Origin: Escherichia coli O157:H7
GTDB lineage: Bacteria; Pseudomonadota; Gammaproteobacteria; Enterobacterales; Enterobacteriaceae
DNA: 64,000 nucleotides
Reading direction: 5' to 3' (one strand)
Assembly: GCF_013167455.1 (NCBI RefSeq)
Contig: NZ_CP038328.1
Shown: piece by piece, positions 47,101 through 50,100 of the stretch
Layout: every line of letters starts with the position of its first letter
Numbering within the stretch: the first letter of the stretch is position 1
Made by a program: the position numbers

Positions 47101-50100
47101 GATCTCCGACTGGAATGACTGTGAATTTGCCGAAATTTTGATAATCAGTTCACGTAACGTCGCCATTCACCTTTCTCCGGGCGTAAAAAAACCGCCTCAG
47201 CGGTTCTCATCATTCATGACTGTGCTGCAAGGCTCAGCGCGTCTTCCAGCGCCGCAAACGGATCCACCTCCGGCTTATCCTCATCCTCGCCCCAGCAGAG
47301 CATGGCGTCCTTCAGTGCAACATTCATCCCCTGTGCCCCGAAAACCGCTTTCACGATCTGTGCATTACGGATATCCCCGCGCTCATCACCCAGCGGGGAT
47401 ATCCTGTCGAACTCCATCCACATCATCGCCTCGCTCGCACTCAGGCTGTGGCGCAGTTCGGATAAGGTGCGCCCCAGACGGAGCGCAAGTCGCATCAGAA
47501 AGCGAATTTCCGGGCGGGCTACTTTTTTCTGGCCGACTCTGCATCAGCGATCAGTTCCAGTGCCTGACGCAGCAACCGGGCATGTACCGGACCATAGACG
47601 GCCAGCACCTGCTCACGGTCGTCCGGAGTGAACACCCGCTGCAGGTCCGTATCACACAGGACATCGCAGAACAGCGTCACATCCGCTTCCAGGTTACGGC
47701 GGGTTTTCGCCACCACCGACAGGGTATCGTCATCCTCTCCATCACCATTGAGCACTTCCTGCCACAGATACCAGGCCTCTGCCGAAGGCTCCCGCAGCAC
47801 CACGCTGACATTACCCCATTCCGGCACCTTCACCGTTTTATGACGAAACCCTGACAGTCTGGCCAGCGCCAGCGTTTTCAGATCCTTTTTCATGATGACC
47901 CATCCCCTTATCCGGCGGCAGCGCTCACTGTCACGGTGCATTCAACAGACGTCACACTCTGTGCTTTCTCTGCCGAATCGGTCACCACACAGGTATATTT
48001 CCCCGCATCAGCGGACTGCGCACCTGGCTTACTGAAGGTGTCTGTCGTCTGCCCGTCAACCGGCTGACCATCCTTCTTCCAGGCGTATTTATACGGCGGC
48101 GTTCCCCCGTTGGCACTGACTGACATTGTCAGCAGCGCACCGGTATTCACGGTAAGTGTCTTATCCAGATTTTTCACAAACGCCAGCGGTACCACAAAGG
48201 ACACCGGTTTGCCTTTCAGACGCAGTGAGAACGTTGCAGCCACCACGCCGTTGGTACCGGATGACCAGGTGTGCTGGCGCACTTCCGCCAGGAATTTAAA
48301 GCCCTTACCGGACGGAAACAGCACCTTAAACGCATACAACGCGTCATTGTCATAGGCATCACGCAGGGCGTTCTGGGCCTGATTCAGATAAAAATTGCCC
48401 GACATGGAAATCTCAGACGACGCCCCCAGACCATTGATGTTCTCCTGCTCTGTGGAGCAGAGCGTGGTCACATCAATATCCTGTTTCTGCCCGGCGGTGA
48501 ACTGCACTTCCTTGATGGTGCAGTCCAGGCGCAGATATTCCGCCTTATCCATAGTTTCAGCAGTCGCCGGGGCAGATGAAATCATCACCTGCGTCAGCTG
48601 TGAGCGTTCATACAAAGCAGACATTCTGCCTCCTGATAATAAAAAACCCGCACGCGGCGGGGTATGGGTTTTGTAGAAAAAAGAAAAAGTCACACCGTGA
48701 CCTGAAACTCCAGGGTTGCACGGTAACAGCGGTTTTCCGGAATATAGTCCTGCATTTCACTGACGGATCCCGGGGCCAGCAGCATTATGGCTTCACGGGC
48801 GTCCTGACGTATCTGACGCGCCTGCGTCACAGTCCCGGCATAAACGTCTATCTGCACCGACACTGAGGACTCCGCCTGCCCGCCCATCACGTCCGCTGAC
48901 ACCGATGAAATCAGGCTGAAAACCACCCACGGAAGCGCCACCGACGGCCTGCCATCCAGCAGGGGGACCACATACGGGTACACCTGCCCGCCGGCAAGAT
49001 GCGCCAGATGAGGATACAAATCCGCCTCCGTCATCGTCTCAGTACCTCATCAATGGCCCGGTTCATCCGCGCAATCGCCACCTGTGCCGCCTGTTCACTG
49101 CGCACATCAAATGCCGGGCGCACAAACGGGTGCGGTGGCATATTCACGGTCCCCATTTCCACAAACCGCCAGTAGAAAGCATTGCGCGGGTTATCCGCCT
49201 TCATGGTGTTATCGCTGTTACCGGTGTCCGGATTAACACCCCGGATATGCACACCGGATTCCATCCCGCCATCGCGGGAGCACCGGGAAAGGACCACCAC
49301 ATTGCGGCGAAGTTTTCCCCTGCGTACCGGTGCCCGTGACACCACTTCTTCTTTCAGCACATTCGCACCCGCACGGGTTGCCTCACGCAGCACCCGGTTA
49401 TTTTCTGCACCACTCAGAAGCTGCAAATCGCGGCTGATGTCCTCCAGCCCCGAAAAATCCAGCAGGGTTTCGATCATTTTTCCCCTCCCAGCCGACAGAG
49501 AATTTCCAGACGTCCGCCGGTCGCATCCGGCACGGTCACGCCAGGGACCACTCAGCACATGAAGTCGTGACGCTGCCGTGATTTCCCGACCGGACTGACC
49601 GCGCACCCAGATGCGGATTTCCGCCTGCGCCATTTCCGCACCGGACTGCATCCGCTCCCGGCTGCTCCTGCCCCGGATATCCGCATGAATTTTCCCGCAT
49701 GACACCCATTCTTCCGTCATTTCTCCGGCAGCGTTACGGGTTAACACCGGGTTCAGAACACTTATCATCTGTGTCAGACGACCTGCAGATATTGCCATTC
49801 CCCCTCCTCATAACACCGTCGGACAACGCAAATCGTAAATCAGCACGGAAACAGAAAACGGCAGCTCCCCCTGAATCAGTTCTTCCCGCTCCGCAAGATC
49901 CGGATTCCGGTACAGCATCCCGGTCAGTCGCATGGCAGCCCCCTTCATCCGGGTTAATGCCTCGCCCGGGATCAGTTCACCGTCCTCACGAATCACCTTA
50001 TCCCGGCTGCCCTGAATGTAGGCCAGCAGCACGGCGGTAGCCTGACGAACCTTGTCCATCAGCATCTCATCATCCGCGTCATGGTCGACACGCAGATGTG

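Follow-up and report, generated by a model that had tools for sequence, protein, structure and literature searches.

Introduction

Programmed -1 frameshifting in tail assembly chaperones of the G/GT type, the lambda class, was reportedly delineated by Xu, Hendrix & Duda in 2004. In the accepted model for phage lambda, G binds the tape measure protein, as does GT through its G part; the T domain of GT, the rarer protein, binds the tube protein and seeds its polymerisation (PMC5009743). The lambda G:GT ratio of about 30:1 is critical; both proteins are required for tail assembly and neither is found in the virion (PMC5009743). Antonov et al. (2013) described a 41-member 'phage tail assembly chaperone' (Phage_TAC) frameshift cluster, HK97-like, and two of its members were assayed with a GST-MBP reporter in E. 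coli MG1655 (PMC3711429). Here we analyse the junction of the chaperone genes G and T in a lambdoid prophage of Escherichia coli O157:H7. It lies in a stretch of 64,000 nucleotides (nt) of contig NZ_CP038328.1, referred to throughout as the window. We are highly confident that ribosomes undergo programmed -1 frameshifting at this junction, which we place in the lambda G/GT class and, within it, in the HK97 gp13/gp14 subfamily. The feature is genuine but ordinary: both it and its class were known before, and a measurement of its efficiency exists.

Results

Minus-strand positions 47528..47519 read AAAAAAGTAG directly in the sequence. The slippery heptamer A-AAA-AAG occupies 47522..47528 (-), and its 3' end adjoins the TAG stop of G (47519..47521, -). 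Read in the zero frame, the end of G is ...GCC AGA AAA AAG TAG. This places the heptamer in the X-XXY-YYZ phase (agA AAA AAG), over the final two codons of the gene. The first-pass annotation had reported A-AAA-AAG directly before the G stop, giving no strand; the motif is there, in phase, on the minus strand. It had further claimed that the -1 frame continues into T. Post-slip reading is AAA AAA GTA GCC CGC CCG..., with the bases of the G stop falling within the GTA-GCC (Val-Ala) codons, and the frame stays open for 102 codons to a TGA at 47216..47214, taking in a T domain (described below). Upstream, the -1 frame is open from 22 nt ahead of the G stop. Translation of the -1 slip product gives a G-T fusion of 226 amino acids (aa).

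The motif alone is not rare, with 36 occurrences of AAAAAAG in the window against 15.4 expected, and its significance therefore rests on context. Among 153 stop-to-stop open reading frames (ORFs) of at least 100 aa, G alone carries AAAAAAG in phase within its last 8 codons. The chance expectation is about 0.0017 in-phase heptamers for the roughly 6 in-phase slots with an open -1 frame.

Other heptamers in the window were also considered. A second in-phase AAAAAAG with a long open -1 frame (8616..8622, +) was rejected as belonging to a spurious frame that overlaps mnmA, and a T7 heptamer match at 17339..17345 (+) was discarded as part of a spurious ORF, antisense to ORF 16160..17215 (-). An IS2 copy at 32014..33242 carries another A-AAA-AAG programmed-frameshift site of this type: the heptamer is in phase in orfA (gcA-AAA-AAG; 32331..32337, +), and orfB can be read on in the -1 frame. 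A stop interrupts orfA of this copy, which the Prokaryotic Genome Annotation Pipeline (PGAP) labels 'programmed frameshift; internal stop'.

A frameshift reporter had been proposed as the check on the site, and such a measurement was already in print for the exact sequence. The insert of fs-gene 15618692 (PMC3711429, Table S2) equals window positions 47548..47474 over all 75 nt. It gave 7% +/- 0.79 -1 frameshifting in E. coli, in a reporter cassette rather than the native operon (PMC3711429). The second member assayed, with the junction G-GGA-AAG CCG TAA, gave 6% +/- 0.61 (PMC3711429). Phage_TAC is not listed among the clusters in which internal initiation was observed (PMC3711429).

The two genes match known Pfam families. 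Gene G (47519..47893, -) starts at ATG 47893 and encodes 124 aa followed by TAG; a longer ORF, beginning at 47941, only adds an overlap with the end of the gene upstream. The product, WP_000710952.1 in PGAP at the syntenic locus, matches PF06222 (Phage_TAC_1, HK97 gp13-like) over profile positions 1-124 of 124, with E 1.1e-61 and 206.7 bits at a gathering cut-off of 25; HK97 gp13 scores 203.3 bits on the same profile. G also matches PDB 2OB9, 'Tail assembly chaperone' (E 4.6e-46), and phrog_344, the tail assembly chaperone family of PHROGs. The -1 extension (47214..47522, -), 102 codons and TGA, contains the T domain PF06223 (Phage_tail_T) at 47232..47441 (-), extension residues 28-97. It was matched at E 2.5e-19 and 69.9 bits (cut-off 25.9) over profile positions 1-70 of 73. 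For comparison, lambda T scores 54.1 bits and the T part of HK97 73.4 bits. A single profile, phrog_14766 ('tail protein', 224 positions), spans both halves, with G at positions 2-122 and the extension at 125-224; fused versions are therefore already present in phage annotations. A search of NCBIfam returned no model match for G or T.

Conservation was assessed in relatives sampled by tblastn from phage genomes down to 33% identity (range 33-100%); the comparison covered 94 loci with 17 distinct junctions. An IMG/VR scan with the G alignment recovered only loci of 98-100% identity, confirming invariance while being uninformative for deep conservation. All 17 distinct junctions place T in the -1 frame, and in each case this frame can be followed back without a stop as far as the slip site. 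Every one has a Lys codon for the A site, AAG except in KS9 (AAA). The window group, the 611R1 group (68% identity) and Vibrio phage Pm34 (48%) have A-AAA-AAG and then TAG, and in the 611R1 lineage the run of A at the slip position is longer (A8). In Burkholderia phages phi644-2 and PhiBP82.1 (about 34-35%) A-AAA-AAG lies eleven codons ahead of the stop. Burkholderia KS9 has A-AAA-AAA, mEp390 has G-GGA-AAG, and HK97, LAU1 and ENT39118 share G-GAA-AAG. Three Klebsiella phages (L087, L088, L094) have GCA-AAG-TAA only, without the heptamer; in them the -1 frame is open from exactly 7 nt ahead of the G stop, and they would need the A-AAG tetramer alone, or a nearby in-frame ATG.

The common element of the junctions is thus the A-AAG tetramer, that is, a Lys A-site codon after A (A-AAA in KS9). 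A-AAG is the most shift-prone tetramer in E. coli in the ranking of Sharma et al. HK97 gp14 and Burkholderia KS9 gp12 are both deposited as joined -1 frameshift products. At close range the ten-base site is unvaried in 48/48 loci (24 haplotypes): 35 of 680 positions vary, none of them inside the site. The description of the site as conserved therefore needs dividing. It fits the -1 layout and the A-site Lys (AAG, or AAA in KS9) and does not fit the whole heptamer, for which relatives carry G-GGA-AAG, G-GAA-AAG or A-AAG only. That the junction follows the standard long-tailed-phage mechanism, as was also claimed, agrees with the chaperone families, the position between tube and tape measure genes, the HK97 deposit as a -1 product and the layout of the 17/17 junctions.

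Stimulatory elements were sought on both sides of the heptamer. No element resembling a Shine-Dalgarno (SD) sequence lies about 6-17 nt upstream of it; within the 32 nt upstream, the best anti-SD duplex reaches -3.3 kcal/mol and is 31-32 nt away. A weak hairpin begins 5 nt downstream of the heptamer, with z of -2.0 to -2.4 in single-sequence folds. This proximal hairpin is absent from the consensus fold of 9 relatives, and no covariation was found. Only a more distal hairpin survives in the consensus fold. It falls within the conserved LALRxGR codons, has 0 compensatory pairs and shows a covariation term of +0.56. With folds this marginal and no conserved proximal structure, a conserved downstream RNA stimulator was rejected.

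The neighbouring genes follow the order expected from the chaperone assignment. On the minus strand this is tube, G, T, tape measure, the overlapping G and T ORFs sitting between the tube and tape measure genes. The major tail (tube) gene directly upstream of G (47908..48624, -) has a C-terminal immunoglobulin (Ig)-like domain; it matches phrog_158 major tail protein (E 8e-118) and Ig domains, and PGAP names it 'major tail subunit'. Directly downstream of T is a tape measure gene of HK97 type (43924..47166, -; 1080 aa), with matches to PF06120 HK97 TLTM (E 7e-90), PF20155, PF09718 and phrog_339. Within it, a patch of 720 bp (44854-45573, -) holds 24/29 of the substitutions relative to the syntenic reference locus. 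This clustering suggests that the patch came from another prophage copy by recombination. A terminator-like hairpin with a U-run (47187..47208, -) lies between the stop of T and the start of the tape measure gene; it has a minimum free energy of -14.6 kcal/mol and a z of -2.27 by direct folding, and was not called by the consensus terminator scanner. The predicted hairpin could reduce tape-measure expression relative to G/GT.

Occurrence and annotation of the locus

DNA of the locus is identical or near-identical to that of several relatives: E. coli O157:H7 lambdoid prophages, phages converting to Stx1a or Stx2c, and phage YYZ-2008. Locus DNA is present in 1245/5426 complete E. coli genomes, in up to 7 copies per genome. 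The syntenic locus is the prophage that adjoins potB. RefSeq/PGAP and most phage records give G and T as two separate coding sequences (CDSs), with T starting from ATG 47495 and with no ribosomal-slippage join. The T product appears in these records as 'phage tail assembly protein T' or 'DUF4035 domain-containing protein'. Since no slippage join is annotated, protein databases lack the 226-aa product. The separate annotation of G and T is an annotation gap, not new biology.

State of the prophage and other features of the window

The tail module of this prophage is incomplete. Between 29779 and 42098, the genes M, L and K are followed by only a 61-aa fragment of I (40247..40432), and there is no J. 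The absence of J makes the prophage's own tail assembly unlikely. Genes for type III secretion system effectors lie in this region: nleL (37777..40125), espN (33785..37186) and espK (29779..31140). Past the effectors and IS2 debris (an IS2 pseudogene at the syntenic locus) comes chromosomal potB. Morons, Arc and Ant (Bro-N/P22_AR_C, 41220..42098), lie between L and K.

In the head-closure gene, 26 bp are missing at 49531-49535 relative to the syntenic O157:H7 locus (L096) and the sibling prophage (L001). The deletion joins what remains of the head-closure protein (PF05521, positions 1-71 of 106) to an HK97-gp10-like protein in a 255-aa ORF (49031..49798, -). It was found in 0 of 5426 complete E. 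coli genomes; it must be a mutation private to this prophage or else an error of the assembly. The first-pass annotation had taken the site to indicate an intact chaperone pair. As regards G and T this is borne out by the full-length PF06222 match and the open T frame; it does not extend to the prophage, which lacks J and most of I and carries the 26-bp deletion. In the Sakai strain, prophage Sp6 is scored 'D' for minor tail and '-' for host specificity (PMC2669165). We infer that the window prophage is the equivalent of Sp6.

The head genes have further peculiarities. The portal gene (50137..52716, -; 859 aa) encodes a portal domain at residues 54-382, then repeats, then a C-terminal extension. 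The repeats, at 50597-51129, comprise 3.3 tandem copies of a 162-bp (54-aa) unit with 95% identity. In the sibling prophage (L001) the portal gene has lost 1 nt and carries the annotation of a frameshifted pseudogene. At 52928..54865 (-), one 645-aa ORF holds both prohead protease (Peptidase_S78) and major capsid (Phage_capsid) domains, and PGAP calls it major capsid protein.

The window also includes chromosomal mnmA (7998..9149, +; TIGR00420, E 1e-160), whose product thiolates U34. A review figure draws the slipping tRNA-Lys with mnm5s2U at the wobble position (PMC5009743). The co-location of mnmA with the slip site is almost certainly a coincidence.

Discussion

We propose that most ribosomes would translate G (124 aa) and stop at TAG, and that a few percent would slip back one base with the AAA-AAG Lys codons in the P and A sites. 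The tRNA-Lys would then re-pair on AAA-AAA and reading would resume with GTA GCC... in the -1 frame, giving the 226-aa G-T. By analogy with lambda, the G part of both proteins would coat the tape measure protein, and the T domain of the rare fusion would recruit the tube protein. The slip efficiency would in this way set a fixed G:GT ratio. We infer that the slip is ribosomal rather than transcriptional; the chaperone roles of G and GT at this locus are presumed from the lambda model.

Several observations count against this account. The 7% fusion comes from a cassette reporter and not from this prophage's own operon. The T-frame ATG at 47495 is kept in most relatives, and RefSeq starts a separate T CDS there. 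J and most of I are lost, and the G-T product may have no current role in the prophage's own tail assembly. Finally, set against the values for bare heptamers, 7% implies a contribution from context; no SD-like element was found upstream, and the proximal downstream hairpin is weak and unconserved.

The retained ATG raises the question of whether T is an independent 93-aa protein, made from ATG 47495 by ordinary or coupled initiation, with the heptamer incidental. PGAP and other records annotate T in this way, and the ATG, within F-L-M, is present in 9/10 diverse relatives. We nevertheless consider independent initiation very unlikely. No SD-like sequence lies within 22 nt ahead of the ATG in any relative examined. 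Relatives largely agree in the -1-frame codons from the slip site to the ATG: the window's linker ahead of the annotated start, VARPEIRFL (47496..47522, -), belongs to a pattern, V-x-x-P-G-x-x-F-L-M, largely common to relatives at the protein level. The slip-to-ATG spacing is 26 nt in 6/10 relatives, and KS9 has Leu in the Met position. The shared linker, the steady spacing, the lack of an SD and the KS9 Leu together argue, at the level of sequence comparison, that ATG 47495 is an internal Met codon and not the start of T. The identical cassette also yielded the 7% fusion, in a cluster not listed for internal initiation, and the -1 frame is open to the slip site at every one of the 17 junctions, by exactly 7 nt in the Klebsiella phages. 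Slippage by RNA polymerase, which would add or drop an A in the A6 run and so place T in frame on the mRNA with no ribosomal slip, seems to us slighter still in probability. The GST-MBP reporter cannot separate transcriptional from ribosomal slippage, and the A8 run of the 611R1 lineage would suit such a mechanism. Against it, the run here is of 6 A, whereas Antonov et al. cite more than 7 A for transcriptional realignment (PMC3711429), and dnaX of Thermus thermophilus uses 9 A. The family member with G-GGA-AAG, which has 3 A only, gave a nearly equal 6%, and the Klebsiella relatives carry just GCA-AAG. The 3-A member and the GCA-AAG relatives implicate the shared A-AAG Lys codon, and hence the ribosome.

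A different challenge concerns function. The slip site may be mechanically competent and yet a relic, in a prophage that cannot build tails and in which G and G-T have no present function and have not yet decayed. We regard this as a genuine possibility, though not the one we favour. It competes with the claim of function alone and leaves the frameshift mechanism untouched. The truncation of I to 61 aa and the absence of J, with nleL, espN, IS2 debris and espK in their place, favour it, as does the 26-bp deletion that fuses the head-closure and gp10-like genes in the window. The minor-tail 'D' and host-specificity '-' scores of Sp6, the presumed equivalent element, point the same way (PMC2669165). 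On the other side, G and T are identical to the sibling-prophage copies in the same genome, with the same WP accessions at both loci, and the site is unvaried in all 48 close loci. Defective O157 prophages are reportedly packaged and transferred with the help of co-resident prophages (PMC2669165), so use in trans is possible.

The level of frameshifting deserves comment. Heptamers without stimulators give 2-10x a background of about 0.05% in the E. coli lacZ system (Sharma et al.). The 7% of the native cassette may reflect context or a difference between reporters, and the point is a minor one. Candidates for a context element could be the nascent peptide or the UAG stop next to the heptamer, which occurs there in three lineages. 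In the member with 6%, the stop lies one codon further downstream and the value is nearly equal; stop adjacency is therefore not required. A context element not yet recognised could tune the G:GT ratio and, separately, the G-T copy in this J-less prophage could be kept for co-residents in trans; we advance these ideas as speculation and think them rather improbable.

Within programmed ribosomal frameshifting, which we retain as the explanation of the junction, this locus adds little biologically, G-T frameshifting being a textbook trait of long-tailed phages. The practical value lies in annotation, as public records omit the 226-aa fusion. The intact G-T cassette also marks tail-module genes that survive in a decayed, effector-carrying O157:H7 prophage.

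Comparison with known systems

Fs-gene 15618692 of Antonov et al. (2013) has the same heptamer, stop and downstream sequence, with no sequence difference over 75 nt. HK97 gp13/gp14 (AF069529) shares the G family PF06222 and the T family PF06223, at 63% and 61% identity, and the position between tube and tape measure genes. The deposited HK97 gp14 bears the remark 'translated due to a -1 frameshift', and the tail assembly chaperone of PDB 2OB9 is near-identical to HK97 gp13. The two loci differ in detail: as its slip region HK97 carries cgG-GAA-AAG, six codons ahead of the stop, whereas the window has A-AAA-AAG directly before the stop. In HK97, unlike the window, a moron (gp15) separates T from the tape measure gene.

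Lambda G/G-T shares the mechanism, the gene position and a T domain in PF06223. Its heptamer differs, being G-GGA-AAG and located six codons before the G stop. Its G protein falls in another family, PF06894 (Phage_TAC_2, 206.9 bits), whereas the window G is in PF06222 and has no PF06894 match at E <= 0.01. BLASTP of the window G against lambda G gave E 6.3, that is, no similarity; BLASTP of the window T against lambda T found nothing, although both match PF06223. E. coli dnaX and the IS3-family elements (IS2, IS3, IS911) have the identical heptamer and the same shifty tRNA-Lys. Those sites use an SD-like element, a hairpin or pseudoknot, or both, and reach up to about 50%, whereas the window site, at which no SD-like element and no conserved proximal structure was found, gives 7%.

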